In this document: positions 1,385 through 16,930 of the stretch, piece after piece
Numbering within the stretch: the first letter of the stretch is position 1
Layout of the letters: the number at the start of each line of letters is the position of its first letter
Origin: Candidatus Electronema aureum
GTDB taxonomy: Bacteria > Desulfobacterota > Desulfobulbia > Desulfobulbales > Desulfobulbaceae
Length of the DNA: 32,000 nt
Direction of reading: 5' to 3'
NCBI GenBank assembly: GCA_004284765.1
Contig: NQJD01000004.1
Location: forward strand, 90,263-122,262
Made by a program: the position numbers and the translations under genes
Notes under the pieces: generated by a model
Told to the model about the DNA's origin: nothing
The model's input: the letters and a program-made list of their open reading frames with translations, nothing else
Database searches by the model: none

Positions 1385-2050
1385 TCACATCTTTCCGTCT
1401 CTCTTCTCAATCTGTTCTTTCTTTTCTGCGGGCAGAGAGTCATAGAGGGTGTCGATATGCTTTGGTTGTGTGATCATAACATCCGCGATAATATTGACTA
1501 ATTTGGCGAGTTGGGCAGCAGTGTCAGGATCATCGCGCAAGTCAAGCTCGCCTGGATGCACTGCCTCATTTCCAATCACGCGAACGATGTCCAGACTCTT
1601 TTGAATACGAGGGTTCAAGCCTTTCTTAACCAGCCCGGCAATATCCTGATTGATGTTCTTGCCAGACTCGCCCAAGTGTGCGCAGAGTTTCTGCACACAG
1701 AGCCGGAGCAGTGCGGCAGCACCACGAGGCGAGCGATTGATGATACTCCGTGCCTCCTCAAAATCTTGGCGGATATCATCGGGAAGATCACTGTTCGGCA
1801 TAGGTGCTGTGGAGGAATCCGGGTGAACCATGTTGCCTTGCCACCAAATGCTGAACTGGCGGCAATGGAGGCATCGACAGACAGACATTTCCTTGATTAA
1901 GGTAGCACGTCGATCTTTCGGTTGAGTTGAGAAAAATGATGGACCAATATCGAAGCCCCCAGCAGACCACTTTTGTTGCGCATATGCGTTACAGAATGGA
2001 CAATTGAATGATGGTGCATCGAATGTCGGCGGAACATATGGTTGTGTCAT
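1385..2050 (-). CDS. DUF4145 domain protein with N-terminal Cys4 zinc-ribbon-like segment
   Basis: 221-aa ORF. The N-terminus has CPFC...CRCLHC. The C-terminal half (PRGAAALLRLCVQKLCAHLG...IQKSLDIVRVIGNEAVHPGELD) fits the DUF4145 pattern (R..GN.a.H). It starts 24 nt after the radA stop on the same strand. Confidence 0.7.
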   Translation of the reverse strand: MTQPYVPPTFDAPSFNCPFCNAYAQQKWSAGGFDIGPSFFSTQPKDRRATLIKEMSVCRCLHCRQFSIWWQGNMVHPDSSTAPMPNSDLPDDIRQDFEEARSIINRSPRGAAALLRLCVQKLCAHLGESGKNINQDIAGLVKKGLNPRIQKSLDIVRVIGNEAVHPGELDLRDDPDTAAQLAKLVNIIADVMITQPKHIDTLYDSLPAEKKEQIEKRDGKM

Positions 2051-2074
2051 ATTTTCATCCCTATTCTCGTTATG

Positions 2075-3445
2075 TTATACAAAGAGCCTCTCCACCACTT
2101 CATGCACGGTGCGGACGGGATGCACAAGGATGCCATCGGCGGAACCCGCCTCAAGCTGGCGACGGCTTGATTCGGGCATGAGGAAGGTCTTGAAACCAAG
2201 CCGCTGGGCTTCGCGCAGGCGCATCTCCATCTGACCAACCGCCCGAATCTCACCCGCCAGGCCTACCTCACCGCAGACTACGGTAGCCGGGTCAACGATC
2301 TTCTCGTAGAGACTGGAGAGCAGGGCGACGATGACTGCCAGATCAAGGGCAGGCTCGTCAATGCGGATGCCACCCGCGATATTGAGGAAGATGTCATGGT
2401 TGAAGAGGGTCAGCCCGATTTTCTTCTCCAAGACTGCGGTGAGCAAGGCAAGACGCTGCGGGTCAGCACCAATGGCGGTGCGCCGGGCGGTGCCGAGGTT
2501 AGAAGGACTGACTAAGGCCTGAACTTCCACTAAGATAGGCCGGGTGCCTTCCACACTGGGCATGACCACTGAGCCAGGCACATTCACGGGCCGCTCGGCG
2601 AGAAAGAGCGCAGAAGGATTATCGACCTCAGCCAGACCGCTTTCCTTCATCTCGAACACGCCAATTTCGTTGGTGGAGCCGAAGCGGTTCTTGACCGTGC
2701 GCAGGAGGCGGAAGACTTGGCTGCTATCGCCCTCAAAATACAGCACCGTATCAACCATGTGCTCTAACACACGCGGCCCGGCAATGCTGCCGTCTTTGGT
2801 CACATGGCCGATGAGGATAATCGGCAAGTCCGTGCGCTTGGCAAGGTTGACTAAGAGCGAGGTGGATTCGCGCACCTGCGTGACCGAGCCGGGCGCAGAG
2901 CTGACCGTCTCGCTGTACATGGTCTGGATAGAATCCACAGCGAGAAAAGCAGGTTGCACTTCCTCCACCAAGCTGATAATGGCTTGCACAGAGTTCTCGG
3001 CAGCAAGAAAGATGCAGTCGCTTTGCACAGCTAACCGCTCGGCCCGCATCCGTATTTGACGGACAGACTCCTCGCCGCTGACGTAGAGGAGCTTGTGCTT
3101 CTGCGCGGCTAAGGCTGCAAGCAGCTGGAGAATGAGGGTGGATTTACCGATACCCGGATCGCCGCCGATCAGGATCATGGAGCCAGGTACGATGCCGCCG
3201 CCCAGCGTCCGGTCTAACTCGCTGATGCCGGTGACGAGGCGGACAGACTCCTCGCCGCCTTCACCGTTGAGCGGGAAGACCTCTGCTACCGCGCTGCCGC
3301 GCAGACGGGGCTTAGACTGCTGTTGCTCGCGCAGGCTGTCCCACTCGCCGCACTGCGGACAGCGGCCCAGCCATTTGCGGCTCTCGTGGCCGCAGCTGGC
3401 GCAGAGGAAGATAAGTTGTGGTTTAGCTGGGGCCATGCGGTTCAT
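2075..3445 (-). CDS. radA: DNA repair protein RadA/Sms
   Basis: N-terminal zinc ribbon CASCGHESRKWLGRCPQCGEW, Walker A GDPGIGKST, a KNRFG motif and a Lon-like C-terminal domain. The start is ambiguous. The ATG at 3445 forms an ATGA overlap with the stop of the upstream HNH gene. The ATG at 3436 (MAPAKPQLIFLCASCG) is equally plausible. The track start at 3478 is probably too long. Confidence 0.93.
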   Translation of the reverse strand: MNRMAPAKPQLIFLCASCGHESRKWLGRCPQCGEWDSLREQQQSKPRLRGSAVAEVFPLNGEGGEESVRLVTGISELDRTLGGGIVPGSMILIGGDPGIGKSTLILQLLAALAAQKHKLLYVSGEESVRQIRMRAERLAVQSDCIFLAAENSVQAIISLVEEVQPAFLAVDSIQTMYSETVSSAPGSVTQVRESTSLLVNLAKRTDLPIILIGHVTKDGSIAGPRVLEHMVDTVLYFEGDSSQVFRLLRTVKNRFGSTNEIGVFEMKESGLAEVDNPSALFLAERPVNVPGSVVMPSVEGTRPILVEVQALVSPSNLGTARRTAIGADPQRLALLTAVLEKKIGLTLFNHDIFLNIAGGIRIDEPALDLAVIVALLSSLYEKIVDPATVVCGEVGLAGEIRAVGQMEMRLREAQRLGFKTFLMPESSRRQLEAGSADGILVHPVRTVHEVVERLFV

Positions 3446-4809
3446 CCGTGATGCCGCTTCCTGTGACAGTTCGGACAAAGAGCGACTGTATTTTCTATGG
3501 TGTCTGCTCCTCCTTGAGCCAATGGAACAATATGATGCGTTTCAAGGAAAGGCTCATTCGTCGATTTGCTGATAAAAGGCGCAGGTTGCTTGCAGTCGAA
3601 GCATATTCCGTTAGCTTTTCTTTTTGCATATTCGACAATATATGGATTTCTTTTAAATTTTAAAACGATTACACTTAACCGTGACGATTCAATGCAGCAG
3701 TTGGCGTTTTTTATTCTCTCTTCCAGATCGTGAATACTCAATTTTTTGACTTCTTTTTCCATTTGCTCCTGTTCTCGATAATAATCATCGATTGCAGTGT
3801 AAACAGGATCAGAGGTGCGACTTGATAACACTTGTGACAAATAGGCAGTTAATCCAGGGGAATGAGTCCTTCTCATCAGCGGAGTTATCTTGGTGTTGCG
3901 TATCGCATAATCGATAAAACGTCTGTTCGCTTCTTCTAAAGAAGGTAAAATATTAACAATATGCTCATGCGAAACAAGACAGCCGACAGAGTCGGGAACT
4001 TTGGCAAGACAGTCAGGGACTTCTTTTAGATTATTAGAAATAATCTTTTTCTTTCCTTGATTCCCTTGAAATTTCACAGCTGTTGTCTCTGTGAAATTTA
4101 AAAATTCTTTCAGAACGAGTACTAATGAATATTTTTTATATATAGTTATGCAGTATTCTTGGCCAACATTAAATCTTATAAATTTTCCATCTTTATCAAG
4201 ATTTATATTCCAATTATCACATCTCAGTTCGTTGGCGTAAAAAATCGCATCTGACAAGAAATGTAGAATATTTTTTCTCAATTTAACATCTGGAAGCAAT
4301 TCTTCGGCGATCTTCTGAGCCGACTGAACGTTTTCTCTGTCAATTTTTTTAAATTCATTGCGATTATTATCTTTACCGCACTTCCAAATTTCTTCGAGTT
4401 CATTTGCCACATCATCAGGGATGATTGACCCAGACCCTCTCGGATGCCAATATTTTTTCTTTAAAACATGATGATTTTCAAGCAGATCAATATTTATCAT
4501 GCGATCCGCCCCAGGAACAAGTATTCTGTCAAAATCTATATCTACGTATAGTGCTTCCTTCTGAGTCTGACTATTATTCCAATGTGTATCAGGATACACA
4601 TCTGATGCAGCCCATCCAGAAGCCATGATGCCTTTTGGCTCTTTCCCTAAACGAATAAGAAAAAGACGATCACCTTTTTGAATGGATTTCCGTGATCCTG
4701 TACTCCAGTCTCCTGAGAAGACTCCTCTTTTTTTAATTTCCTGAGCTGCATCGGCAATATTATCCCAATGATAATATTCAGGGTTCCATATCAATAAGTA
4801 CGTGGCCAT
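3442..4809 (-). CDS. HNH endonuclease with N-terminal PUA/EVE-like domain; putative modification-dependent (type IV-like) restriction enzyme
   Basis: The C-terminus RNPYIVEYAKRKANGICFDCKQPAPFISKSTNEPFLETHHIVPLAQGGADTIENTVALCPNCHRKRHHG is a clear McrA/COG3183-type HNH motif. The N-terminus (MATYLLIWNPEYYHWDN...GDRLFLIRLGKEPKGIMASGWAASDVYPD) looks like a PUA-fold reader, which is an inference. The start is taken at ATG 4809 because the track start at 4932 would overlap the upstream gene. The gene is strongly AT-rich compared with its flanks; for example, line 4081-4140 has 14 G+C out of 60. Confidence 0.8.
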   Translation of the reverse strand: MATYLLIWNPEYYHWDNIADAAQEIKKRGVFSGDWSTGSRKSIQKGDRLFLIRLGKEPKGIMASGWAASDVYPDTHWNNSQTQKEALYVDIDFDRILVPGADRMINIDLLENHHVLKKKYWHPRGSGSIIPDDVANELEEIWKCGKDNNRNEFKKIDRENVQSAQKIAEELLPDVKLRKNILHFLSDAIFYANELRCDNWNINLDKDGKFIRFNVGQEYCITIYKKYSLVLVLKEFLNFTETTAVKFQGNQGKKKIISNNLKEVPDCLAKVPDSVGCLVSHEHIVNILPSLEEANRRFIDYAIRNTKITPLMRRTHSPGLTAYLSQVLSSRTSDPVYTAIDDYYREQEQMEKEVKKLSIHDLEERIKNANCCIESSRLSVIVLKFKRNPYIVEYAKRKANGICFDCKQPAPFISKSTNEPFLETHHIVPLAQGGADTIENTVALCPNCHRKRHHG

Positions 4810-4910
4810 TTTTTCGTCAAAATTTGACGTTGAATGCCTTAAACGGCTGAACGCTCCGCTTGTCTTATAGAACGGCGAGGCCATTTGCGCAGCCCCGCCG
4901 CTTCTCCATT

Positions 4911-7900
4911 TCAGTGCTGCTGTGACCCACACGCCAGCATCTGCTCATTCAGCCGCTGGGCTTGCAGGCAGAAGGCCTCCATCCGCGCCTCGATGAGCTG
5001 CGGGAAAGGATTGCCGTCGGTTTCGATAGCGAGGAAAGGCAACTTGCGCTCTTTGGTCAGAAGAGACTCCCACGCCACGCTGTTGCCAAGCTGAATCTTC
5101 TTCTCCGTCGTGGTGAATTTCTCACTCAGAACTGCTTCAGCTACCCGTGAAGGCATACAGCCAAACGGCCCGATGGAGATCACCCCGCAAGACGGATGGA
5201 GGATTTCGTGCAAGGCCGCACCCACGGTGAGAATGGTCTCCACCGTGAACTGCTTGGAGACAAACCGCTCACCCGCCTCAATTACCGGTTCAATCGGCGA
5301 AGGAGTGCCGTCATAAAAGAAGAGGCCAGAGAGAGAGAGCCGCTTGCGGATAGCCTGATCAAAGTATTTCTTGATCTGTCGCCGGATGGCGAAGCCCGGT
5401 GTTGCCTCGCCCTCAATGCCTTCGCCGATCAGCCAGTCCACATACTTCATCCACTCGCCGATGGAAGCAGTGCGGGCAACAAAGCCACGGGCAGCCAGCT
5501 TCTCAATCAAGTGTTGCAGAGAAATAGGATCGTGGCGGACGTAGATTTCACCGAGCAAGGAAATCTTAGGCATCTGCGCGTAGGGTATCTTCAGCTCAAT
5601 CTGGCGCAGACGGAGCGCGCTACGGGAAAGCTGATCAGCTAACACCGGCCAGCGTCGGTGGATGACCGCCTGAATCGCCCGATGCTCTGCGTGGAAAATC
5701 TCCAACGCCTCTTCTCGGTCTTTGGCTCCAGCCAGCACCGCAGGCCACATTTCATCAAAGATATCGCCGATGATGATTGCTCGCCAAGCCGCCCGCAGGA
5801 AGCTGTCGCTGAGGTTGCAGTAGCCGTTCATGGCAGTCGGGGTGAACATCGCCACGTCTGGAATGTGCTGCTGCTCCACCACCCGCTTGGTATAAACGTG
5901 GTACTGACCGAAACGGCAGGGGCCTTCCGCGCTGGCCATATAATAAACCAGCACCTCGCCGGGCTTGCGCTGCTTGACGCTGTTGAGCAATGCGCCGAGC
6001 GTGGTTTGCAGCGGCAGACATTCCTTGCAAGAGGCGTTGCCACGGCCCAGCTTAAGAACTTCCTCATCCGCCGCTGGCATGACCTCAGCTTTTATGCCGA
6101 CTCTGTTAAAGGCGGCAGCCAAGAGCGGGGTGGCATAGCGGCTCATGGCCGGAACTAAAAGCCGCACACGCGGATCAGTCATCGGCAGCCAGTCGCCGTC
6201 AGAAGTCCGCACGCCGGTCACGCCATCCCTGTTCTCTACTTCCGCTGCGTGGAAGATCTTGCCGAGAGCCTGCTTCGGCTGGCCCTTCTTCTGAATCTCT
6301 CGGTAATAGCGGATGATATCCAAGAAGGCTTCAATCCGGGTTTCCAAGCCCGCATCAGCAGTGTGGCTGTCTAATTCCAAGGTCAGCGAGGGCTTGCGGC
6401 CCATGATGCTGCGGAAATAGCTGACAATGAAGGAGTCTGGCCCGCAAGAGAAGTTGGTGATATACGCCCCGTAGAGCTGCGGGTGCTTCTCGACAAAGCG
6501 CGCGCCCTTGAGGATGATCTGGCCCATAACCCAGAACATGTTCGCATCATCAGCTAATTGCTCCTCCCAGTAGGGCAGCATGTCAAAAGGAATGATGCTG
6601 ATGCCCCGGCTGGCAAACTTGGCTGGAATACCCTTGTTGGCGGCACTGGCAAAGCTGTTGTACGGTCGCCCAAAGACCACCACGCCGAATCTGTCCGGGT
6701 TCTGCTCAAGATCCGCCAGAGCCTGTTTGCCCATGGCGCGGATGTCTTCAGTGAAGGCATCTTGAGCGGCAATAGCGGCCTGCAAGGCAGCATCTGCCTT
6801 GGCAGCATCCATGCCGAACTGTTTGGCCAAGTCACGGATGGCATCGCGGTCAGCCGTGTAGCCTTTGGCGAAATCCAACACCTGATAGATGACGTTCTTG
6901 CTGTTCTCCAAGGCTGGGAAGGCAGTGCGGAGATAATACGGCTCGCCTTGCACTAACACGCAAGTACACGAAGTCTTGTCCTTCTCACCAAGATCAAAGC
7001 CCTTCAGTTGCGGCAGAAAGATGTAGTCTGGTTTCTCCGCTATGAGCGCAGCAATGTAATTATGGGCGATTTCCACCGGATAGCAGAAGGAAGAACCCTG
7101 CTGATCCGCGCCTCTGGGGTCTTGCGCCGCAGGCAAAGTCAGCCGGAAGCCCAGTGCCGCAAAGAAGGCGTTGAAAAAGGGGAAATAGGTGTTGAGCAGG
7201 AAGGAGCGGTTCATGCCGACCGTGGGCCGCTTGTCCTCCGGGCTGACTGGGGCGAGGTCACGGAAGACCCGCCGTTCGCGCCGGATGACTAAATCATAGT
7301 CGCCAGCCTCCACCTTGCGATTGTGAATTAAGTTGTCATAGCGATTGCAGATGCCGCCAAAGGGATAGACCTTGCCCTTGATCTTGATCCGAGCAATCTC
7401 ACAGCCCCGGTCGCAGTCCTTGCCACCGCCGCATTTGAACGGCTCGCCGTATTCCACCTCACGGTTGATCAGCTCCTCCAAATCGTACTGCTCGGATTTG
7501 AGCAAGCCCTGCTCCATCCGTCGCTCGACCTCCAAAGCCACACCGAAAGCACCCATCAGCCCGGCTTCAGACGGCACCACCACCTGCTTGCCAGTCAGCC
7601 CAGCCAAGGCCGCTGGCACAGCCTGATTGTAGCAAACCCCGCCTTGGACAAAGACCTTTTTCCCCACCGGGCGGCTGCCTTTCACTCGATTGTTGTAATT
7701 CATGCCGATGGAATAGACTAACCCAGCCACGATGTCTTCCAACGGCACATTCTCCTGCACCGAGCGTTTGATGTCCGAGCCGATGAAGGCCGCGCACTGG
7801 TCACTGAAGTTGGGCGGGGCGGTGGCACGGAGAGCGGTTGCGCCGATATCTGTCACCTTGATGCCAAGGCTTTCTTTGGCCGCTTCTTCCAAGAACGAGC

Positions 7901-9435: not shown

Positions 9436-9535
9436 GCGTTTCACGGGGGGTGCTTCTGCGGAAGCTGAGAGAGGCGGCTGCCTCAACCCTTGGAACCTGA
9501 TACGGGTCATGCCGTCGTAGGGACAGTGAGAAAAG
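9436..9535 (+). promoter_or_regulatory. TPP (THI-box) riboswitch aptamer
   Basis: ucacGGGGGGUGCuucugcggaagCUGAGAgaggcggcugccucaACCCuuggAACCUGAUacGGgucAUGCCgucGUAGGGAcaguga carries the conserved GGGGUGC, CUGAGA, ACCUGAU, AUGCC and GUAGGGA blocks. A closing P1 pairs UCAC (9441-9444) with GUGA (9526-9529). It lies upstream of thiS-thiG-thiH. Confidence 0.92.
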
Positions 9536-9576
9536 CCATGCCGCGCCTTTCCCCCTTCCCTTCGTTTGTCCGTCCG

Positions 9577-9651
9577 GTAGGGGTGAACCTTGTGTTCACC
9601 CTGTTATATCACATCGGGCAAGATCGGGCGATCACAAGAATCGCCCCTACG
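9577..9651. repeat. REP-like hairpin doublet, copy 1, in the thi leader
   Basis: GTAGGGGTGAACcttgtGTTCACCC, 24-nt spacer, GGGCGATCacaagaATCGCCCCTAC. These are two GC-rich hairpins whose outer ends (GTAGGGG / CCCCTAC) are themselves inverted. The architecture is the same as at 12939-13031. Confidence 0.8.
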
Positions 9652-10683: not shown

Positions 10684-11796
10684 ATGTCCTTCCTCAACGT
10701 TGTCCTTGCCTTAGAATCCTTTGATTTCGATGCCAGCCTGCACGCCATTACTGCTGCCGACGTAGAGCGCACGCTGTCCCGCGACGAGCAGCTTGACCGC
10801 CGCGACCTGCTCCACTTGCTCGCCCCGGCAGCGCAGCCGTATCTGGAGGAAATGGCCCAGAAAGCGCATCGTCTGACCTTGCAGCACTTCGGCAAGGTGA
10901 TCGGCCTGTATGCACCGCTGTATATCTCGGATTACTGTGCGAACTCATGCACCTACTGCGGCTTCCATGTGGGCGTTGACTTTCCCCGCACCAAGCTGAC
11001 GCTGGCTGAGATCGAGCAGGAAGCAGCAGCCATCGCCGCCACCGGAATCCGGCACATCCTTGTCTTGACTGGCGAAGCCCCGGCCCAGACTCCGCTGTCC
11101 TATCTGGCCGAGGCAGTGCATCGGCTGCGGGCGCATTTCTCGTCCATCGCCTTGGAGATTTTCCCGCTCGATGAGGCCGAATACCGCATCCTGCGCGAGG
11201 CCGGAGCCGATTCGCTGACCGTCTATCAAGAGGTCTATGACCGCGCCATCTATCAGGAAGTGCATCCGGCAGGACGGAAAGCGGATTACGTCTGGCGTGT
11301 GCAAACCCCGGAGCGCGGCGCACGGGCAGGCTTCCGGGCGTTGAACTTAGGGCCGCTCTTTGGCCTTGGCCAACCCCGCCGCGAGGCATGGCTGGCCGCG
11401 CTCCACGCCCGCTGGCTGGAGGAGGAGTTCCCGGATGTGGAAGTCTCGCTCTCCTTGCCGCGCATGACCAAAGCAGCGGGCGCCATTGCCCCGCGCTCGC
11501 TGATGTCGGACAGCGAGTTCGTCCAATTCATGCTGGCGTGGCGGCTGTTTATGCCACGGCTCGGCATCACCATCTCCACCCGCGAGGCCCCCGCGTTCCG
11601 TGACCGGCTGGTCCAGCTTGGCGCAACCCGCTTCTCCTGTGGCTCGAAGACTGGCGTGGGCGGCTACGCGGTCAGGAAGCAGGACGAAGCCCCGGTGCAG
11701 TTCGCCGTGACCGATAACCGCAGCGTCGAGGAAGTGGCAGCGATGCTCCGCCGGAGCGGTTATCAGCCGATTTTCAAGGACTGGGAGCTGGTGTGA
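10684..11796 (+). CDS. thiH: 2-iminoacetate synthase ThiH (radical SAM)
   Basis: 370 aa with the radical-SAM cluster motif CANSCTYCGF. It starts 2 nt after thiG. Confidence 0.93.
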   Translation: MSFLNVVLALESFDFDASLHAITAADVERTLSRDEQLDRRDLLHLLAPAAQPYLEEMAQKAHRLTLQHFGKVIGLYAPLYISDYCANSCTYCGFHVGVDFPRTKLTLAEIEQEAAAIAATGIRHILVLTGEAPAQTPLSYLAEAVHRLRAHFSSIALEIFPLDEAEYRILREAGADSLTVYQEVYDRAIYQEVHPAGRKADYVWRVQTPERGARAGFRALNLGPLFGLGQPRREAWLAALHARWLEEEFPDVEVSLSLPRMTKAAGAIAPRSLMSDSEFVQFMLAWRLFMPRLGITISTREAPAFRDRLVQLGATRFSCGSKTGVGGYAVRKQDEAPVQFAVTDNRSVEEVAAMLRRSGYQPIFKDWELV

Positions 11797-11797
11797 T

Positions 11798-11912
11798 CGT
11801 GATACGTATGATGCCGCTGTCGTGATAGGTATCACGACGATGCCATGATACGTATGATGATTTTGCCGTGATACTCGATGCGGCAGATTCGGGATACGTA
11901 TCCTTTTTGGGG
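11798..11912 (+). repeat. Tandem array A: five 23-nt units with a near-palindromic GATACGTATGATG core
   Basis: Units read in register: cgtgatacgtatgatgccgctgt / cgtgataggtatcacgacgatgc / catgatacgtatgatgattttgc / cgtgatactcgatgcggcagatt / cgggatacgtatcctttttgggg. The array starts 2 nt after the thiH stop. It contains a perfect 9+9 inverted repeat GTCGTGATAggTATCACGAC, and the palindrome GGATACGTATCC followed by TTTTT. Confidence 0.85.
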
Positions 11913-11924
11913 ATGGATGGGTGT

Positions 11925-11949
11925 GCGGGCGAATCTTGTATTCGCCCGC
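11925..11949. repeat. Single REP-like hairpin, copy 2
   Basis: GCGGGCGAATcttgtATTCGCCCGC has a 10-bp stem. The cttgt loop is the same as in the REP hairpins at 9581-9601 and 12943-12965. Confidence 0.7.
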
Positions 11950-12083
11950 CTTGTTGCCTGCAACCACCAAGCGATCGGTATGGGAAGAGGGATTGCGCGA
12001 AAGAGAATATTGTCTGAGAACGGATAGTTAAGGATTTAGAGATGGTGTAAGAAGTACGATATTCCGCATATGAGGCTGTTTCT

Positions 12084-12689
12084 ATGAATATTTTTACGGC
12101 AGCAGTGACAGGATTTACCATTGTGGTCAAGAAAGTCGGGATTGTCTTCAAAGCAGTCCTGACCGGGATACGAATTCTGATCACACATATCATCATTTTC
12201 GTTGTCCGTGCAATAGAAGCGATTGTTGATGCCTTTCTATCATTCTTGAAGTTAGTTTGGACGCAGATAGTCAAAGTCGTCAATTGGCTCTTCAGAATGT
12301 ACTTATCAGAGTCAGGTATCGTTTCTTTGGCTCAGGAATCAGTTAGCTTCGCAATCAGGCTGCGCTGGGGCGTTGTAATAATCTCTGGTTTGTATGCGAT
12401 TTATAAATATTTTGGCGTAACTTATTTACTACTGGCAGTTGTTGTTTGTTGTGCATTGATTTTAATTGGCTATTCAGAAGCAAAAAAAGAGGAGGAGAAA
12501 TGGAATTCTATTATAGATAGAATCAATGAAGTTATTGCACGTTATTCAAGATATACAATTCGTTGTGCTATCCTTCTGTTCTCAGCTTATATTTTGTACA
12601 TGCAGATTCCATTGAAAGGCTACAATAGCCAGACAATAATGGAAAAATATATTGATCAGCAGCGCACAGAGAATGCAATACAACCCTGA
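12084..12689 (+). CDS. Hypothetical membrane protein (AT-rich orphan)
   Basis: 201-aa ORF with several hydrophobic/amphipathic segments (IVFKAVLTGIRILITHIIIFVV, VVIISGLYAIYKYFGVTYLLLAVVVCCALILIGY, CAILLFSAYILYM). GAGG lies about 9 nt upstream of the ATG. I recognise no family. AT-rich relative to the thi genes. Confidence 0.55.
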   Translation: MNIFTAAVTGFTIVVKKVGIVFKAVLTGIRILITHIIIFVVRAIEAIVDAFLSFLKLVWTQIVKVVNWLFRMYLSESGIVSLAQESVSFAIRLRWGVVIISGLYAIYKYFGVTYLLLAVVVCCALILIGYSEAKKEEEKWNSIIDRINEVIARYSRYTIRCAILLFSAYILYMQIPLKGYNSQTIMEKYIDQQRTENAIQP

Positions 12690-13269
12690 CATTCATCATC
12701 GCCGCTCGATCCGCTTGCAGGGATATGATTATTCTCAGGATGGCGCATATTTCATCACCATCTGCGTTCAAGGCAGGGAATGTCTGTTCGGGGATATTGC
12801 AGAAGGAGGGATGCGGATGAATGAGGCGGGGAAGATGATTCTTCAGATATGGAATGAATTGCCGCAGCGTTTCAGCAATGCGGAGATAGATATTCTTGCG
12901 GTCATGCCAAATCATCTGCACGGAATTATATTCTTGCACCGTAGGGGCGAACCTTGTGTTCGCCCTGCATCACATTGTATTTCCTCCTTGCCATCAAACA
13001 CCAAGGGCGATCATAAAGATCGCCCCTACGGAACCTTGCCTGATTCCATAGGCCGTCTTGTCCAAGCATTCAAATCCATCACCACCAATCAATATATCCA
13101 CGGCGTGAAGAAACAGGGATGGAGACCATTTCCCGGCAGGCTTTGGCAGCGCAATTATTGGGAACATATCATCTGTGATGAAACGGAATTGGAGAAAACC
13201 CGTGAATATGTCCAGAATAATCCGGCTCAATGGGCACTGGATGAATTGAATCCCTTTTACGCGCCATGA
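12673..13269 (+). CDS. IS200/IS605-like Y1 (HUH) transposase of the REP-associated (RAYT) type
   Basis: MQYNPDIHHRRSIRLQGYDYSQDGAYFITIC..., HUH motif in MPNHLHGII, and a catalytic-Tyr helix in LWQRNYWEHII..REYVQNNP. The start is taken at ATG 12673. The track start at 12652 adds 7 residues that are atypical for this family. Confidence 0.85.
   Translation: MQYNPDIHHRRSIRLQGYDYSQDGAYFITICVQGRECLFGDIAEGGMRMNEAGKMILQIWNELPQRFSNAEIDILAVMPNHLHGIIFLHRRGEPCVRPASHCISSLPSNTKGDHKDRPYGTLPDSIGRLVQAFKSITTNQYIHGVKKQGWRPFPGRLWQRNYWEHIICDETELEKTREYVQNNPAQWALDELNPFYAP
12939..13031. repeat. REP-like hairpin doublet, copy 3, inside the RAYT coding sequence
   Basis: CCGTAGGGGCGAACcttgtGTTCGCCC, 37-nt spacer, GGGCGATCataaaGATCGCCCCTACGG. 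It is translated in frame as ..HRRGEPCVRP...GDHKDRPYG.. between the HUH motif and the Tyr helix. Confidence 0.8.
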
Positions 13270-13775
13270 CCGCCGCCGAACTCATCCGTCTCCTGAAGCT
13301 GGAGCCGCACCCGCTGGAAGGCGGCTATTTCCGCCGCATTTACGAATCATCCCTGCGCTGCGACTGCGGCTATGGCAGCAGGCCGCTGCTGACTTCGATC
13401 TACTACCTGCTCACGCAGGAAAGCCCGGTCGGGTTGCTGCATAAGAACAGATCAGATATCCTGCATTATCATCAGCGCGGCGCGGCTGTCAAATACATCA
13501 TGATATCCCCGGAGGGCAGTCTGTCAGAGCACATCCTCGGCCCGGACATTCAGCATGGCGAGACCCTGCAATTGCTGGTTCCGGGCGGCTGGTGGAAAGC
13601 GTCGCGGCTCTGCGAGGGTGAATATGCTTTGATCAGCGAGGCGGTCGCGCCGGGTTTCGACTATGCGGACAATGAGATTGCGACGGAGGAGATGGTGCAG
13701 CGGAATTACTCAGAGATGCTTGATGTGCTGAACAGGTGTATCAGGCAGAGACCTTCTGAGGATGCAGATTTATGA
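13266..13775 (+). CDS. Cupin-fold protein, DUF985 family
   Basis: 169 aa. LKLEPHPLEGGYFRRIYES, TSIYYLL, LHYH, LQLLVPGGWWKA and ISEAVAPGFDYADNEI match the DUF985 (cupin_5) pattern. Its ATG overlaps the RAYT stop (ATGA). Confidence 0.8.
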   Translation: MTAAELIRLLKLEPHPLEGGYFRRIYESSLRCDCGYGSRPLLTSIYYLLTQESPVGLLHKNRSDILHYHQRGAAVKYIMISPEGSLSEHILGPDIQHGETLQLLVPGGWWKASRLCEGEYALISEAVAPGFDYADNEIATEEMVQRNYSEMLDVLNRCIRQRPSEDADL

Positions 13776-14032
13776 GCAGCATACACGACAAGTTGAAGCA
13801 ATTCAAAAACAACCCGAACGACGTGAAGTTTACGGAACTCTGCAAGGTCTGCGAGTTCTATTTCGGCAAACCGCGTCAGTCCGGCTCCAGCCATACAGTG
13901 TACAAAACCCCTTGGCAAGGCGATCCCCGTGTCAATATCCAGAATGACAAGGGCAAGGCAAAGGCGTATCAGGTGAAGCAGGTTCTCAAAGCTGTCGAGC
14001 GATTGGAGGTGGAGCATGGCGCTCAAGAATGA
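13772..14032 (+). CDS. hicA: HicA-family toxin (mRNA interferase)
   Basis: 86 aa. The segment KPRQSGSSHTVYKTPWQGDPRVNIQNDKGKAKAYQVKQVLKAV fits the long HicA variant (G-S-H...Y core). Its ATG overlaps the cupin stop (ATGA). It sits upstream of hicB, the usual order. Confidence 0.7.
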   Translation: MSSIHDKLKQFKNNPNDVKFTELCKVCEFYFGKPRQSGSSHTVYKTPWQGDPRVNIQNDKGKAKAYQVKQVLKAVERLEVEHGAQE

Positions 14033-14314
14033 TCATTACACCTACCGGGTGACGTGGTCGGAAGATGACAACGAATATGTCGGGCTGTGCGCGGAGTTTC
14101 CAAGCCTGAGCTGGCTGGCAAAGACGCACGAGGCCGCGTTGAAAGGCATTCGGCAGGCGGTGGCAGAAGTCATTCAGGATATGCGGGAAAACAACGAGCT
14201 GGTTCCAGAGCCTATCGCTGTGAAGCAGTTCAGCGGCATCGTGATCTTGCCCTGAAAGCGGCGGAAACAGGTGTCAGCCTGAACCGGCTTGCCAGCTCCA
14301 AATTAAGCAGATGA
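14016..14314 (+). pseudogene. hicB: HicB-family antitoxin with the C-terminal RHH domain out of frame (frameshifted or internally deleted)
   Basis: Frame 1 (14016-14255) gives the HicB N-domain: YTYRVTWSEDDNEYVGLCAEFPSLSWLAKTHEAALKGIRQAVAEVIQDMRENNELVPEPIAVKQFSG, then IVILP-stop. A second frame reads HRDLALKAAETGVSLNRLASSKLSR-stop from 14237 to 14314, which is the usual ribbon-helix-helix tail. The segment normally between FSG and LHR (K-F-x-x-R-x-P-x-x-L) is absent. Confidence 0.65.
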
Positions 14315-14328
14315 GGTGATGAGTAATC

Positions 14329-15369
14329 ATGAACGAATCCAGACTCCTTGACGCGAACATCAACCGCGCTGCCGAAGGGCTGCGGGTTTTGGAAGACATC
14401 GCCCGTTTCGCCTTTGACCGGCAGGAGCTTTCTGCCGAACTGCGCGGCCTGCGTCATACGGTGCGCGACCTCTTCAAAGGCCGAGAGAACAGCCTGCTGG
14501 CTGCCCGCAACGCAGCGGACGATGTGGGCAAAACCACCTCCGGGCAAAGCGCGAGCGACCAGCGCCGCAATCTGCGTGACACGGCCCAGGCCAACTTCAA
14601 GCGGGTGCAGGAGGCAGCCAGAACCTTGGAGGAAGTCCTCAAGGCGCAGGGCGAATACGCTGCGGGCAAGCGGCTGGAGCAGCTGCGCTTTCAGCTCTAT
14701 GAGCTGGAGCCGCGTTTCCTGCCGCTCTTCCAGCGCACGCTGCCTGCGGGGATATACGGCATCCTCGGCGAAAAGTTCTCCCTTGGCCGCAGCAACGCGG
14801 ACGTGGCCCAGCAGATGACCGATGCCGGAGTGCGAATCATTCAGTACCGGGAAAAGCTGAAGGACAAGAGCATCAGGGCGATTTACGAGGAATGCCTGAG
14901 CATCCGCCGCATCACCGCAGACGCGGGCGCACTCTTCATTATCAATGATTATGCTGAGATTGCCCTGATGGTCGGCGCGGACGGCGTGCATCAGGGGCAG
15001 GATGATCTGCCGGTGAGCGAGCTGCGCCGAATTGCGCCGGGCCTGCTCATTGGTTGCTCAACGCACAGCCCGGAGCAGGCGGAACAGGCGGTGCGCGACG
15101 GGGCAGACTACATCGGCGTGGGGCCAATCTTCAGCACCCAGACCAAAGAGGATGTCTGCGCCCCGGTTGGGCTGAATTATCTCGACTACGTGGCAAAAAA
15201 CATTCATATTCCCTTTGTCGCCATTGGCGGCATCAAACGGGAGACCCTGCCGCAGGTGCTGGCGCACGGCGCGAAGACCGTCTGCTTGGTCACAGAGATC
15301 ATCGGCGCGGAAGACATCGGGCAGCGGGTCAGGGAGATTCAACAAATTATGGCAGCAGCGCAACCATGA
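14329..15369 (+). CDS. thiE: Thiamine-phosphate synthase ThiE with an N-terminal extension of about 135 aa
   Basis: The C-terminal 210 aa (GIYGILG...IQYREK...FIINDYAEIALMVGADGVHQGQDDLP...IGCSTHS...ADYIGVGPIFSTQTK...FVAIGGI) is a canonical TMP-TENI fold. The N-terminal helical domain (MNESRLLDANINRAAEGLRVLEDIARF...) is unassigned by me. GAGGTGA lies 9 nt before the ATG. Confidence 0.9.
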   Translation: MNESRLLDANINRAAEGLRVLEDIARFAFDRQELSAELRGLRHTVRDLFKGRENSLLAARNAADDVGKTTSGQSASDQRRNLRDTAQANFKRVQEAARTLEEVLKAQGEYAAGKRLEQLRFQLYELEPRFLPLFQRTLPAGIYGILGEKFSLGRSNADVAQQMTDAGVRIIQYREKLKDKSIRAIYEECLSIRRITADAGALFIINDYAEIALMVGADGVHQGQDDLPVSELRRIAPGLLIGCSTHSPEQAEQAVRDGADYIGVGPIFSTQTKEDVCAPVGLNYLDYVAKNIHIPFVAIGGIKRETLPQVLAHGAKTVCLVTEIIGAEDIGQRVREIQQIMAAAQP

Positions 15370-15387
15370 GCCTGCGTTGCCTGCGAC

Positions 15388-15502
15388 GATCATAACGCTT
15401 ATGTCCCTCCGACTATAGTGCTTATGTCAGTCGGACATACGTGCTTATGTCGCTCTGACCTAAGCGTTATAGTCCGACCGACATACGTGCTCTGGCAATA
15501 TG
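15388..15502 (+). repeat. Tandem array B: five 23-nt units related to array A
   Basis: Units: gatcataacgcttatgtccctcc / gactatagtgcttatgtcagtcg / gacatacgtgcttatgtcgctct / gacctaagcgttatagtccgacc / gacatacgtgctctggcaatatg. Each has an internal small inverted repeat GACATA-N6-TATGTC. The array lies between the thiE stop (15369) and the thiC Shine-Dalgarno/ATG (15524). Confidence 0.85.
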
Positions 15503-15523
15503 GGACTAACTTCAGGAGAACAA

Positions 15524-16807
15524 ATGACACAAACATACACCACCCAGATGGACGCGGCCCGCAAAGGCATCATCACCCCGCAGATGCGCGAGGTCTTGGC
15601 CAATGAGGTTATCTCTGAACAGCTTTTGCTGGAGCGGGTGGCGCAGGGACGCATTGCCATCCCGGCCAATAAGCACCACCACAATCTCAAGGCAGCCGGG
15701 GTTGGTCAGGGTTTGAAAACCAAGATCAACGTCAATCTGGGCGTGTCCAAGGATGTCTGCTCCTTCGAGGGCGAGATGAACAAGGCTCGCTTGTCGCTCA
15801 AATACAAGGCTGATGCGATCATGGACTTGAGCGTCTCCGGCGACACCGAAGGCTTCCGCAAGCGACTGGTGGCGGAAGTGCCGGTGATGATCGGCACGGT
15901 GCCGATCTACGACACCATTACCCGTACTGGCAAGCCCACAGAACAGATCACGGTGGAGGACTGGTTTGAGACGGTGCGCATTCACGCTGAGAACGGCATA
16001 GATTTCATCACCATCCATGCGGGATTGAACCAGAAATGCGCCAGCAGTCTGCGCCTCAACAAACGGCTTTGCGGTATTGTCAGCAGAGGCGGAGCGATTC
16101 TGTATGAATGGATGGCGAAGACTGGTCAGGAGAATCCCTTCTACGAATACTTTGACCGACTCTTGGACATTTGCGAGCAGCACGATGTCTGCATCAGCCT
16201 TGGCGACGGTCTCCGGCCTGGCGCGATCAAGGATTCGACCGATGCGCCGCAGATCGAGGAGCTGATCACGCTCGGCGAGCTGACCAAGCGGGCTTGGGCG
16301 CACAACGTGCAGGTGATGATCGAGGGGCCGGGCCATGTTCCCCTGCACGAGGTGGAGATGAACATGAAGCTGCAAAAGAAGCTCTGTCACCACGCGCCGT
16401 TCTATGTGCTCGGCCCGCTGGTCACGGACATCGCGCCGGGTTATGATCACATAACCTCAGCCATCGGCGGCGCGCTGGCTGCCATGCACGGGGCGGATTT
16501 CCTCTGCTACGTCACGCCGGCGGAACACCTGCGCCTGCCTTCCGCTGACGACGTGAAGGAGGGCATCATCGCCTCCAAGATCGCTGCTCATGCGGGCGAC
16601 TTGGCCAAAGGCATTCCCGGCGCGGCGGACTTGGATCACGCGATGAGCGCGGCACGAGGCAGCTTGAATTGGGAAGGCCAGTTCAACCTTGCCCTTGACC
16701 CGGAGAAAGCGCGGGCCTACCGCGCCTCCTCTGAACCTGCGGACAAAGGCGTTTGCACCATGTGCGGCGACTTCTGCTCGATGAAGCGGCTGAAGGGGCT
16801 GCTGTAA
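15524..16807 (+). CDS. thiC: Phosphomethylpyrimidine synthase ThiC
   Basis: [21 protein letters not shown]... and a C-terminal [11 protein letters not shown] cluster motif. AGGAGA lies 6 nt upstream of ATG 15524, so the track start at 15500 is less likely. Confidence 0.95.
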
Positions 16808-16861
16808 AATCGTCTTGCTCTTCGCATTTGTTGCATAATTTGGAGAGCAAGGCAATTCATC

Positions 16862-16889
16862 TTGTGAAAGCAGGGGCAGGGGGTATAAT
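16862..16889 (+). promoter_or_regulatory. Possible sigma70-type promoter for the PDT-TyrA gene
   Basis: TTGTGA (16862-16867), 16-nt spacer, TATAAT (16884-16889), about 40 nt before the ATG at 16931. Match found by eye only. Confidence 0.4.
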
Positions 16890-16930
16890 GGCAGAAAACT
16901 TCAACTTCGTTCGCCTCCTGACTCTGCATC

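Follow-up and report, generated by a model that had tools for sequence, protein, structure and literature searches.

Tandem arrays of 23-nt hairpin units in the thi region of Candidatus Electronema aureum: probable REP/BIME-like repeats of cable bacteria

Two tandem arrays of 23-nt units (A and B) in thi spacers of Candidatus Electronema aureum are real repeats, and with a third array (C) nearby they represent a class that is, within our sample, lineage-specific for cable bacteria (Candidatus Electronema; sparser in Electrothrix). Arrays of this class lie beside unrelated genes, are polymorphic in presence and in copy number, and have no specificity for thi genes. As to their origin, spread and effect on the host, we infer that they are tag-less, array-only REP/BIME-like repeats that are selfish or neutral and do not serve thi control, a reading to which we assign a probability of roughly 60%. 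Coordinates (Table 1) refer to the window, i.e., the whole analysed stretch of 32,000 nucleotides.

Table 1. Arrays and neighbouring genes in the window.
Feature	Position	Strand	Description
thiH	10684..11796	+	upstream neighbour of array A; Pfam Radical_SAM + BATS
Array A	11797..11911	.	five 23-nt units; core CGTGATACGTATCACG + 7-nt linker
ThiD2-ThiE fusion gene	14329..15369	+	upstream neighbour of array B; Pfam
Array B	15388..15502	.	five 23-nt units; GACATA-CGTGCT-TATGTC + 5-nt linker
thiC	15524..16807	+	downstream neighbour of array B
TPR2, TPR1	19012..21081 (TPR2 19012-19980, TPR1 20071-21081)	-	tandem duplicates flanking array C; Pfam
Array C	19981..20070	.	three to four 23-nt units, GGAGACACCATAGTGTCTCC type; overlooked in the first-pass annotation
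NB-ARC gene	21044-22204		TPR genes lie downstream of it

The description of A and B as arrays of five 23-nt units, given in the first-pass annotation, was confirmed by TRF, by the register layout and by a lag scan. TRF reported period 23 at 11797-11874 for A (3.4 copies, 74% matches) and at 15397-15491 for B (4.1 copies; 80% matches if read as period 46), and in the 23-nt register five units are recognizable in each array, the last ones being the most degenerate. When the whole window was scanned at lags of 8-79 nt (69-nt windows, at least 60% identity), the only scoring periods were 23 and its double, 46. All palindromes that had been described are found in the sequence, namely GTCGTGATAGGTATCACGAC at 11819-11838 and GGATACGTATCC at 11892-11903 in A, and GACATA-N6-TATGTC at 15434-15451 in B. 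Array A directly adjoins the thiH stop codon (11794-11796), and TTTTT follows its last unit, GGGATACGTATCC. Array B extends from 18 nt past the thiE stop to 21 nt short of the thiC start codon (ATG); its unit 4 approximates the reverse complement of unit 2, which results in the 46-nt super-period (inverted repeat I1), and the array is identical in the independent assembly L001. Array C, for which TRF places period 23 at 20000-20069, takes up the entire spacer between the stop codon of TPR1 and the ATG of TPR2 and coincides exactly with the joint of a tandem duplication of 1071 nt, whose two gene copies share 62% amino-acid identity. Its ortholog in E. halotolerans (L165:9843-9996) has six to seven units, and the units are 80-85% identical between E. 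aureum and E. halotolerans, whereas the TPR genes on either side are 70% identical at the nucleotide level. The units of array C are as well conserved between the two species as protein-coding DNA, which hints at a function or at active homogenization, since junk DNA would not be expected to keep these units so well.

The arrays have their architecture in common, not their sequence. Units A1 and B3 match at about 15 of 22 positions, and A and B had been regarded as related, but this relation could not be demonstrated on proper alignment: in the best rotation the two consensus units match at only 9 of 23 positions (p~0.99), the local alignment of the arrays scores 15, where shuffles average 15.4 (p=0.62), and under a structure-preserving null the similarity equals background. 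The same orientation that had been noted for A and B means little where units are palindromes and where one of those in B is inverted. What A and B do have in common is a stem of 6-7, a loop of 4-6 and a linker of 5-7 that add up to 23 nt. No consensus is common to A, B and C, and k-mer sharing among 12 arrays is at chance level; the window's genome therefore does not reveal a single dispersing family.

Every array folds better than shuffled sequence (z of -2.4 to -8), with values against dinucleotide shuffles of -3.2 for A (sense; -3.5 antisense) and -5.8 for B. The z-scores are alike on both strands and there is no consistent strand asymmetry; A and several other arrays fold better on the sense than on the antisense strand, and for C the antisense fold is at least equal to the sense fold. 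Among the units of B, V4 and L008, 22 cells were changed on both sides, versus 13.1+-2.5 in shuffles (0/500), and the covariation score was 0.449, versus at most 0.152 with partners slid. In these units the arms covary while the central six nucleotides, (C/A)GTGCT, are kept, and C-type units show the same covariation pattern. The ratio of G.U to A.C mismatches in the stems is 8:1 in A, 5:6 in B/V4/L008 and 7:5 in C. These comparisons show self-complementarity to be conserved through compensatory changes, and covarying stems with kept loops fit hairpins better than operators. The earlier proposal of a repeated RNA hairpin module was borne out insofar as covariation and folding statistics identify each unit as a hairpin; its functional framing around thi gained no support.

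In about 0.33 Mb of Electronema-type DNA we found some 18 independent arrays next to unrelated genes, in a small and biased sample, each locus having a thi or TPR gene at its centre. Cable-bacteria loci (275 kb) yielded 13 lag-23 matches at a threshold of 0.55 and other Desulfobacterales (936 kb) yielded 0, a further 869 kb of metagenomic controls gave low-complexity matches only, and 1.8 Mb of control DNA from other bacteria contained no array of this kind, as every lag-21/23 match there was coding or low-complexity, with a folding z near 0. Solitary unit copies were absent from the roughly 2.3 Mb of sequence examined. The period is 23 in aureum-type, KV, V4, halotolerans and YB6 arrays, and 21 in TJ, JM, PJ and Rat3; one 21-nt unit is common to three L007 loci and another to two L005 loci. 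The flanking genes encode MOSC, PLD-like, histidine-kinase, DUF6709, TPR and PIN proteins or are mutS, pcnB and gdh/purB, and most arrays lie between co-directional genes, often reaching exactly from stop to start codon (A, C, L165), with others between convergent (L002b) and divergent (L008) genes. Arrays close to thiC or thiE also occur in L005, L007, L008 and L010, which is expected, because all thi-centred loci were sampled around thiC. With arrays beside TPR, gdh/purB, DUF6709, mutS and histidine-kinase genes, the units are generic intergenic repeats without a tie to thi.

Comparison of close relatives revealed gain, loss and turnover. In most relatives thiE and thiC overlap at ATGA, and this junction is empty in L005-L010, L082 and Electrothrix, and filled in the window, L001, L002 and L004; L003 has another palindromic insert in place of B. 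The ThiC of L082 is 98% identical, yet array B is missing there. Where present, B sits in an insert of about 150 nt and arrives with a replaced thiE 3' end, not as a clean insertion, the last codons of ThiD2-ThiE differing from those of relatives with an empty junction. Orthologs of array A have four (L082), five (L173), six (L002) or eight (L004) units, and that of L003 is diverged and has six. In one lineage an A-type array lies 3' of a MOSC gene and not of thiH, and synteny breaks at the left edge of A, between the thiH and MOSC contexts, as confirmed in three assemblies. The window, L002, L003, L004 and L082 all retain the T-run after the final A unit despite stem divergence.

These data bear on several other explanations. 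A thiamine-specific cis-regulator, with A and B as related elements that stand in for a thiC riboswitch and govern how the thi transcript is processed or translated, draws on the location of both arrays in thi spacers, on the arrays near thiC or thiE in other cable-bacteria species, and on the lack of a TPP riboswitch before thiC, in the position where the first-pass annotation had expected a regulator. This lack had been claimed correctly: the single TPP aptamer (RF00059) in the window lies at 9436-9541, upstream of thiS, and Rfam at permissive settings gave no match in 11700-20200, including A and B. On the comparative data, however, the thiamine-specific reading is already contradicted and hardly credible, as the two arrays are not demonstrably related, B is absent from a strain whose ThiC is almost the same and from the majority of species, in which the two genes thiE and thiC overlap, an A-type array stands behind a MOSC gene, non-thi loci carry arrays just as frequently, and the thiC Shine-Dalgarno sequence (AGGAG, about 15512-15516) is predicted to be unpaired. 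Phased sites in duplex DNA, at which each palindromic unit would bind a dimer (a repressor, a ParB/RHH-type or a nucleoid-associated protein) with a 21-23-bp spacing for a co-operative, filament-like assembly, had also been considered in the form of operator-like sites. The dyad-symmetric units with 6-bp arms 4-6 bp apart, the centre-to-centre distance of about two helical turns and the strand-symmetric palindromy would suit such sites, and operator, iteron and centromere arrays (lambda OR, plasmid iterons, sopC/parC) likewise consist of tandem dyad-symmetric or direct repeats about two turns apart; lambda OR1-3 are spaced 23-24 bp. In those systems, however, the protein-contacting arms are conserved, and one or few arrays per replicon serve promoters, origins or partition loci, whereas the cable-bacteria arrays are numerous, lie 3' of stop codons or between cistrons, and contain no promoter-like sites. 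Their arms differ within one genome (GTGATAC in A, GACATA in B, GAGACAC in C), so one protein could not read all of them, and in B/V4/L008 the arms change in compensatory pairs around a kept centre, the reverse of operators. With 10.5 bp per turn, moreover, each 23-bp unit would turn the next site by about 68 degrees, which puts successive sites out of helical phase. We consider sites of this kind very improbable.

Arrays are found at rearrangement joints, and they could be scars or recognition sites of recombination or transposition, i.e., ends, junction fillers or attachment sites that mark joined gene segments, by analogy with HUH enzymes on single-stranded hairpins or with multi-site transposon ends (Tn7, Mu, Tn552); transposon ends with several 22-23-bp transposase sites exist. 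Array C at its duplication joint, the breakpoint at the left edge of A and the replaced thiE end accompanying B are all consistent with this, as are an rve-type transposase fragment, truncated as read from the sequence, that adjoins the L009 array, and GTAG-REPs directly next to array A (11923-11949) and next to the L175 array. Against it, the arrays lack target-site duplications and have no terminal inverted repeats in common, no recombinase or transposase gene is consistently nearby, no inverted array pairs bracket a segment, and the units are too diverse for one enzyme, which makes this explanation quite unlikely. A host-beneficial RNA module would consist of selected multi-hairpins between the cistrons of polycistronic transcripts genome-wide, not only at thi, which act as a 3'-exonuclease barrier, as a partial terminator or insulator, or as a spacer that sets relative cistron expression, as in E. 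coli 3' UTR REPs/BIMEs. In its favour are the mostly co-directional, often exact stop-to-start placement, the conservation of the C unit type since the divergence of E. aureum and E. halotolerans, the better sense fold of several arrays with the G.U excess in A, and the T-run retained behind A although the stem diverged. The strand asymmetry is inconsistent, however, B/V4/L008 and C lack such an excess, C folds at least as well in antisense, arrays also occur between convergent or divergent genes, fast gain and loss at the thi junctions speak against an important role there, and a simple terminator scan found none within the arrays; we therefore regard a selected RNA module as unlikely.

Among other tandem repeats, minisatellites, VNTRs and MIRUs resemble the arrays in being tandem, in lying in intercistronic spacers of operons, in their strain-polymorphic unit number and in that they can abut stop and start codons. 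MIRUs, reportedly described by Supply et al. in 1997, are said to have units of 46-101 bp with a family consensus and small ORFs for translational coupling, and not to be hairpin-based, whereas the array units are palindromic and 21-23 nt long, and 23 is not a multiple of 3. CRISPR repeats are similar in their internal stem-loop, regular spacing, lineage-constant length (the shortest 23-24 nt) and diverse sequence, but the arrays have no spacers, leader or nearby cas genes, and many small ones are scattered among ordinary genes. The closest likeness is to REPs and BIMEs, which also consist of short, imperfectly palindromic sequences in the spacers outside genes, often with co-directional genes on both sides and sometimes immediately 3' of a stop codon, with regular spacing, alternating orientation, sub-families that differ by complementary stem changes, strain-variable copy number and species-specific families. 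REPs are known to be reiterated in tandem, to alternate in orientation within BIMEs and to form sub-families whose stems are complementary variants, and the GTAG-1 arrays of Thauera sp. MZ1T are tandemly reiterated small REPs (Nunvar et al., 2010, PMC2817692; Di Nocera et al., 2013, PMC3733652). Unlike REPs and BIMEs, our arrays lack three features that define REPs, namely a GTAG or CGTC tag, solitary copies (none in the roughly 2.3 Mb) and a linked RAYT or other cognate transposase, which counts against membership; they also lack REPIN doublets and are strictly head-to-tail with a fixed 23- or 21-nt period and no mosaic linkers, each array of the window's genome having its own unit sequence without a genome-wide consensus. 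The window also contains a RAYT-like gene, which pairs with a separate, GTAG-tagged REP family.

According to the REP/BIME-like reading, the class comprises short head-to-tail hairpins of the architecture given above (stem in bp, loop and linker in nt), with a variant of 5-bp stems and a 21-nt unit in some species, and direct and inverted units often alternate to give a super-period of 46 or 42 nt. Its presence in spacers of unrelated genes, its gain and loss between close strains and its position at rearrangement joints would be REP/BIME-type behaviour. Unit number also changes between close strains, which would come about most simply via slipped-strand mispairing or unequal recombination between units; the strict 23-nt (21-nt) period without sequence conservation is unexplained by simple slippage. 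The remark that no element of this exact form has been described was fair, as neither Rfam nor the genome papers on cable bacteria contain one, and it seems fair to call the class undescribed so far, clustered small REPs/BIMEs being its nearest described counterpart. Once transcribed, the arrays would form stable stem-loops in polycistronic RNA. The hairpins of B would thereby break the ancestral translational coupling of thiE and thiC at the ATGA overlap, with the thiC Shine-Dalgarno sequence staying free, and array A would place structure and then a T-run immediately past the thiH stop. Such effects on thi expression are probably incidental by-products of insertion and not an evolved control of thiamine synthesis genes.

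The first-pass annotation had described two arrays of 23-nt tandem repeats in the thi spacers, and both are present: Tandem Repeats Finder (TRF) reports period-23 arrays at 11797-11874 and 15397-15491, the second being better read as period 46, and in the 23-nt register arrays A and B consist of five units each, the final units being degenerate. The count of two was incomplete, as a lag-autocorrelation scan of the whole 32 kb (lags 8-79) returned lag 23 and its double, 46, alone, and did so at three sites; the third, array C, had been missed. Gene calls and Pfam matches give the order TPP riboswitch, thiS, thiG, thiH, array A, an insert of unrelated genes, ThiD2-ThiE, array B, and thiC. The thiH stop codon directly adjoins array A, and array B starts 18 nt 3' of the thiE stop and ends 21 nt 5' of the thiC ATG. 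That thiC has no TPP riboswitch of its own was also seen correctly at first pass: Rfam searches at gathering and at permissive thresholds (E up to 1) matched no family at the arrays and found RF00059 solely upstream of thiS. Arrays A, B, and C have a common architecture, in which a stem of 6-7 bp, a loop of 4-6 nt, and a linker of 5-7 nt add up to 23 nt; the units are short imperfect palindromes with arms of 6-8 bp that are able to form a stem-loop, and they are contiguous, with a start-to-start distance equal to the unit length. Every array found sits in a spacer between ORFs, no sense-strand ORF runs through the arrays, each 23-nt copy shifting the reading frame, and A, B, and C units were found in the window solely within their own array. 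Arrays A and B fold better than their dinucleotide shuffles (z = -3.2 and -5.8, respectively), and the folding z-scores of all arrays range from -2.4 to -8. An independent short-read assembly (L001) contains array B with an identical sequence, which shows that the arrays did not arise in assembly. Exact protein matches put the window on the closed 2.94-Mb chromosome OW818638.1 (assembly GCA_942492785.1), whose accession belongs to one series with the E. halotolerans and E. laxa genomes of Sereika et al. 2023 (PMC10030654), so that the organism is probably Ca. Electronema aureum GS.

Features of the window and period-23 or period-21 arrays in the comparison loci
Feature	Genome or locus	Position	Basis or context
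TPP riboswitch	window	9436-9541	RF00059 match, 76.5 bits
thiS	window	9691-9888	gene calls/Pfam
thiH	window	ends 11796	gene calls/Pfam
Array A	window	11797-11911	directly 3' of thiH
Predicted membrane protein, 201 aa	window	12084-12689	no Pfam match; inserted with RAYT-like gene between thiH and thiE
RAYT-like gene	window	12673-13269	NCBIfam REP_Tyr_transpos, 57.6 bits (below cut-off of 80); Pfam Y1_Tnp
Two small ORFs	window	13772-14290	between cupin gene and thiE; toxin-antitoxin-like arrangement
ThiD2-ThiE fusion	window	14329-15369	gene calls/Pfam
Array B	window	15388-15502	thiE-thiC spacer
thiC	window	15524-16807	gene calls/Pfam
Array C	window	19981-20070 (TRF core 20000-20069)	period 23; TRF and lag scan; within NB-ARC/TPR (STAND) locus
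Array C orthologue	E. halotolerans	L165:9843-9996	
Array	Electronema sp. V4 (L168)		between gdh and purB
Arrays	E. halotolerans (L167), YB6 (L170), strain JC (L175)		after TPR genes
Period-21/42 arrays	L005	1856-2340, 7150-7440	
Period-21/42 array	L006	5040-5300	
Period-21/42 arrays	L007	8230-8560, 15030-15370, 20600-20725	
Period-21/42 array	L172	6364-6548	

The pattern of variation between units speaks to whether they act as folded strands or as double-stranded binding sites. MAFFT, using sequence alone, aligned the units of array B in one register with those of the V4 array and of the array of comparison locus L008; the units retain (C/A)GTGCT or CGTATA as their loop and have different stems (GACATA/TATGTC, GGACTTA/TAAGTCC, and GTTGAT/ATCAAC). 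In this alignment 22 cells are changed on both sides, compared with 13.1 ± 2.5 in shuffles (0 of 500), with a covariation score of 0.449 versus at most 0.152 for slid partners, and in the C-type units 80.6% of the cells are paired, with a score of 0.292 versus at most 0.151, figures that amount to about three or four independent stem variants, since the units of one array are not independent. A kept centre with covarying arms is, as far as these alignments go, the signature of a folded single strand and not of a dimeric operator. The array of operator-like sites for a dimeric DNA-binding protein that had been proposed at first pass thus appears disfavoured: the arms vary and covary around a kept centre in the B, V4, and L008 units, and a simple promoter consensus scan revealed no promoter-like sites within the arrays. 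A simple terminator scan gave no calls there either. The folding z-scores are alike on both strands, and G.U versus A.C mismatches stand at 8:1 in array A, 5:6 in the B, V4, and L008 units, and 7:5 in the C type. Direct and inverted units are mixed in many arrays, such as B (in which unit 4 approximates the reverse complement of unit 2), L002b, L010b, and L007b (arrays of the comparison loci L002, L010, and L007), and this mixing results in a super-period of 46 or 42 nt and in long composite hairpins; the arrays with a 46-nt super-period include B, the A-type array of L002, and that of L009 from Electrothrix sp. YB6.

Arrays A and B had been taken to be related, a view that we had to abandon. 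At best rotation and strand, their consensus units match at 9 of 23 positions (p ~0.99 versus shuffles), the best local alignment scores 15 at a shuffle mean of 15.4 (p = 0.62), and the pair also stays at background under a structure-preserving null of reversed sequences, which keeps the tandem and palindromic structure. For the unit pair A1-B3, we counted 15 matches versus the 16 of 22 originally given, and about 16 of 22 for one chosen pair is expected when the choice among 25 unit pairs is free and a gap is allowed. Among the arrays in general, 7 of 78 pairs reached p <= 0.005 versus shuffles, with 0.4 expected (C-L165, L010a-L170, B-L010a, B-V4, L165-L175, L002b-L165, and C-L175), and under the structure-preserving null the orthologous pair alone is beyond doubt, about 10 pairs exceeding the 95th percentile versus 4 expected. 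The evidence for kinship of non-orthologous arrays (B-L010a, B-V4, L010a-L170, and C/L165-L175) is suggestive under this null. Twelve arrays have k-mers in common no more often than expected by chance, and we do not claim a universal core, for which GAYAC, ATAGTG, or GATCATAA had been picked by eye. A covariance model (R1) built from the B, V4, and L008 units recovered its training arrays and, weakly, L010a, and the search with it revealed no solo copies and no other arrays. Sub-families across species and loci are likely, not proven, and array A, we conclude, has no relatives among the others. Separately, GATCATAA occurs five times in the window, with 0.7 copies expected, and the 11-mer TGTGATCATAA three times, at 1468-1479 (+), 16441-16452 (-), and 19992-20003 (-); further sites are 15388-15395 and 13009-13016. 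Two of the copies border arrays B and C, and one each lies within thiC and within a DUF4145 gene.

At the thiE/thiC junction, stop and start codons overlap (ATGA) without any spacer in most cable bacteria (L005-L010 and six Electrothrix loci), and array B, together with changed final thiE codons, is found only in the window, L002, L004, and L001. In a ThiC search, Candidatus Electronema genomes matched at 97-99% identity, and a metagenome scan with ThiC yielded two close Electronema loci only, the remaining loci being used as controls. The metagenomic strain L082, with a 98% identical ThiC, has an empty thiE/thiC junction, and strain JC (L003, 99% ThiC identity) carries a different, long palindromic insert there, which makes this junction a repeated target of palindromic insertions. 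The JC insert (L003:9860-9985) is an imperfect palindrome of ~125 nt with the arms GCGCCGCACCCTTCGGCTCCGCTCAGGGTGCTT and AAGCGCCCTGAGCGGCGCCGAAGGGCAGCGC. The unit number of array A is 4 in L082, 5 in both the window and L173, 6 in L002, and 8 in L004; L003 carries a strongly diverged version with 6 units. Its palindromes change by paired substitutions, CGTGATAGGTATCACG of the window corresponding to CGTTATACGTATAACG of L002. Judged from these comparisons, array A is the older but unstable one, with units that have been replaced over time. In the L002 lineage, the same A-type array sits with its downstream flank after a MOSC-domain gene and not after thiH, as three independent assemblies agree, and this indicates a rearrangement joint exactly at the array edge; strain JC has no array 3' of its MOSC gene.

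The 90-nt spacer between the stop codon of TPR1 and the ATG of TPR2, which forms the novel joint of a tandem duplication of 1071 nt, is filled by array C. The two copies become homologous again precisely at the start codon, and nothing resembling array C is present at the paralogous junction of NB-ARC and TPR1. The orthologous site of E. halotolerans has 6-7 units of the C type, again from stop to start, versus 3-4 in the window; the C units are 80-85% identical between the two species, whose TPR genes on either side of the array are 70% identical and whose NB-ARC and valS genes are 84-86% identical. Array C is therefore old and constrained, or it is actively homogenised, and its conservation is the main observation that a pure junk-DNA reading leaves unexplained. 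A 3' fragment of valS is duplicated across the NB-ARC/TPR island (18842-18996 versus 23677-23831, 83% identity), and E. halotolerans has the same arrangement at L165:10960-12126, with a 388-aa valS-fragment ORF 3' of the TPR gene. As the arrangement is common to both species, the island appears, on sequence comparison, to have landed within or adjacent to valS before the species split, duplicating the 3' part of that gene.

The arrays are widespread among cable bacteria. With the threshold set at 0.55, the 275 kb of loci from cable bacteria gave 13 lag-23 hits, and 936 kb of other Desulfobacterales gave 0; a further 869 kb of metagenomic controls gave low-complexity hits only, and all lag-21/23 hits in 1.8 Mb of controls were coding repeats, heptamer microsatellites, or low-complexity DNA with a folding z of ~0. 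Non-thi loci were fetched via TPR paralogues and one MOSC gene, and further neighbours of arrays are a histidine kinase gene, a DUF6709 gene, mutS, and pcnB. About 18 independent arrays were found in ~0.33 Mb of Electronema/YB6-type DNA, a small sample biased to thi and TPR loci, and arrays appear to occur in cable bacteria at roughly one per 15-30 kb. Solitary B-, C-, or GATAC-type hairpins were not found in 170 loci. Electronema TJ, JM, and PJ and Electrothrix Rat3 have arrays of period 21/42 with a 5-bp and not a 6-bp stem. The period type does not track ThiC similarity: ThiC of TJ and JM is 97-98% identical to that of the window, yet these two have period 21 alone in the sampled loci. One unit is common to three L007 arrays and another to two L005 arrays, so that the arrays of those genomes make up dispersed, species-specific families. 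The period-23 array of YB6 (L009:20250-20360) adjoins, on the opposite strand, an apparent C-terminal fragment of a transposase (...RPQTNGMVERFNGRI), which by eye we take to be of the rve type (IS481/IS3-like), and this array is probably another one at a truncation or joint.

Other accessory DNA is present in the window. GTAG-tagged REPs at 9577, 9626, 12941, and 13004 are a sequence family distinct from the arrays and rare in the other sampled loci. An inverted, REPIN-like doublet of GTAG-REPs (9577-9651) lies between the TPP aptamer and thiS, where the expression platform is expected; the riboswitch leader of strain JC (L003) has one GTAGGGGCAAAA...TTTTGCCCCTAC hairpin instead and is ~70 nt shorter. 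The gene resembling a RAYT (REP-associated tyrosine transposase) looks intact, with the HUH motif NHLHGII and the Tyr in RNYWEH, and its coding sequence holds an in-frame GTAG-REP pair (12939-13031); it carries and neighbours GTAG-REPs and not 23-nt units, and it is absent beside array A in L002, L003, and L004. A degenerate REP-like hairpin (GTGCGGGCGAATCTTGTATTCGCCCGC) is located at 11923-11949, 11 nt 3' of array A, and in strain JC (L175) a GTAG-REP directly follows a period-23 array; GTAG-REPs and period-23 arrays seem to accumulate at the same spots. Of the two small ORFs upstream of thiE, the first matches HicA weakly (E = 0.022, below the Pfam cut-off) and the second matches nothing. 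These ORFs, the REPs, the RAYT-like gene, and the arrays mark the thi operon of this strain as heavily invaded by accessory DNA. A cluster reminiscent of a defence or DNA-repair island lies elsewhere in the window, at 1385-4932, beside a gene for a 1469-aa BadF/BcrA-type CoA-enzyme activase; it encodes a DUF4145 protein, an EVE-HNH endonuclease, and a KaiC/RadA-like ATPase that bears a Lon-protease C-terminal domain and a zinc ribbon.

Among described elements, REPs that are clustered into BIMEs come closest to the arrays. REPs are known to be regularly spaced in alternating orientation, to be tandemly reiterated, and to form sub-families with complementary stem variants, and the small REPs of Thauera, with 5-bp stems, were found via a tandem-repeat database, in arrays beside genes (PMC2817692, PMC3733652). 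The arrays are likewise short extragenic stem-loop palindromes in clusters with regular spacing and alternating orientation. They differ from REPs and BIMEs in that, with the units read in register, no conserved GTAG/CTAC or CGTC/GACG lies beside the stems, and that solitary or doublet copies were not found in the window, in the 170 loci, or in the R1 search. A linked RAYT also appears to be missing, the RAYT-like gene of the window going with the separate GTAG-REP family. A high-copy dispersed consensus family was not seen in the window, and the shared units in L007 and L005 partly support one. With MIRU-type minisatellites, the arrays have in common that tandem units are intercistronic and polymorphic in copy number between strains, but MIRU-type units are 46-101 bp long with short ORFs overlapping the flanking stop and start, whereas the arrays are made of hairpins of 23 or 21 nt without ORFs. 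CRISPR repeats are similar in size and hairpin, but the arrays have no unique spacers. In a literature search, including full text, we came across no account of these arrays; the cable-bacteria genome papers catalogue only IS elements and repeats >250 bp.

The best-supported reading is that the arrays represent a lineage-specific, REP/BIME-like class of tandem mini-hairpin repeats. Such arrays would settle in spacers and at joints, they would probably expand and contract by slippage or unequal exchange, and, when transcribed, they would place stable stem-loops within operon RNAs. In the thi operon, array B would remove the ancestral translational coupling of thiE and thiC, the thiC Shine-Dalgarno sequence being unpaired in the predicted fold, and array A would put structure, and then a conserved T-run, directly 3' of thiH. 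Sequestration of the thiC Shine-Dalgarno sequence by array B is not predicted by the fold. The alternative that the arrays serve thi-specific control, to which their position in two thi spacers had given rise, is contradicted by the comparative data: array B is missing in most cable bacteria and in L082 despite its 98% identical ThiC, and arrays lie generically beside unrelated, non-thi genes. The consequences for the thi operon are likely incidental.

A further alternative is that the arrays are a distinct, undescribed class of period-locked tandem mini-hairpins (23 or 21 nt by lineage), array-only and tag-less, with a trans-acting factor of their own. This dedicated factor would recognise hairpin geometry and loop, not stem sequence, and in cable bacteria it would give rise to arrays, or keep them homogeneous, at the junctions of genes and at the joints of rearrangements. 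Candidates for it may be an HUH-type enzyme with single-stranded DNA as its substrate, or an RNA-binding protein for which the arrays serve as insulators between cistrons. If true, this would explain the constant unit length without sequence conservation, the period switch between close species, and the conservation of array C. With the origin of the arrays, their fixed unit length of 23 or 21 nt, and the conservation of array C in view, we consider a distinct class with its own machinery unlikely, at about a one-in-five chance.

For thiamine regulation the arrays are of no consequence, as they are no substitute for a thiC riboswitch. For genome biology they are of modest interest, as the published analyses of cable-bacteria genomes did not describe them, and a constant unit length combined with a free stem sequence poses the small, well-posed question of what sets the length. 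The arrays coincide with rearrangement joints and add structured RNA to operons, and their polymorphism between near-identical strains means that they could serve as strain-typing (VNTR) markers for unculturable cable bacteria.
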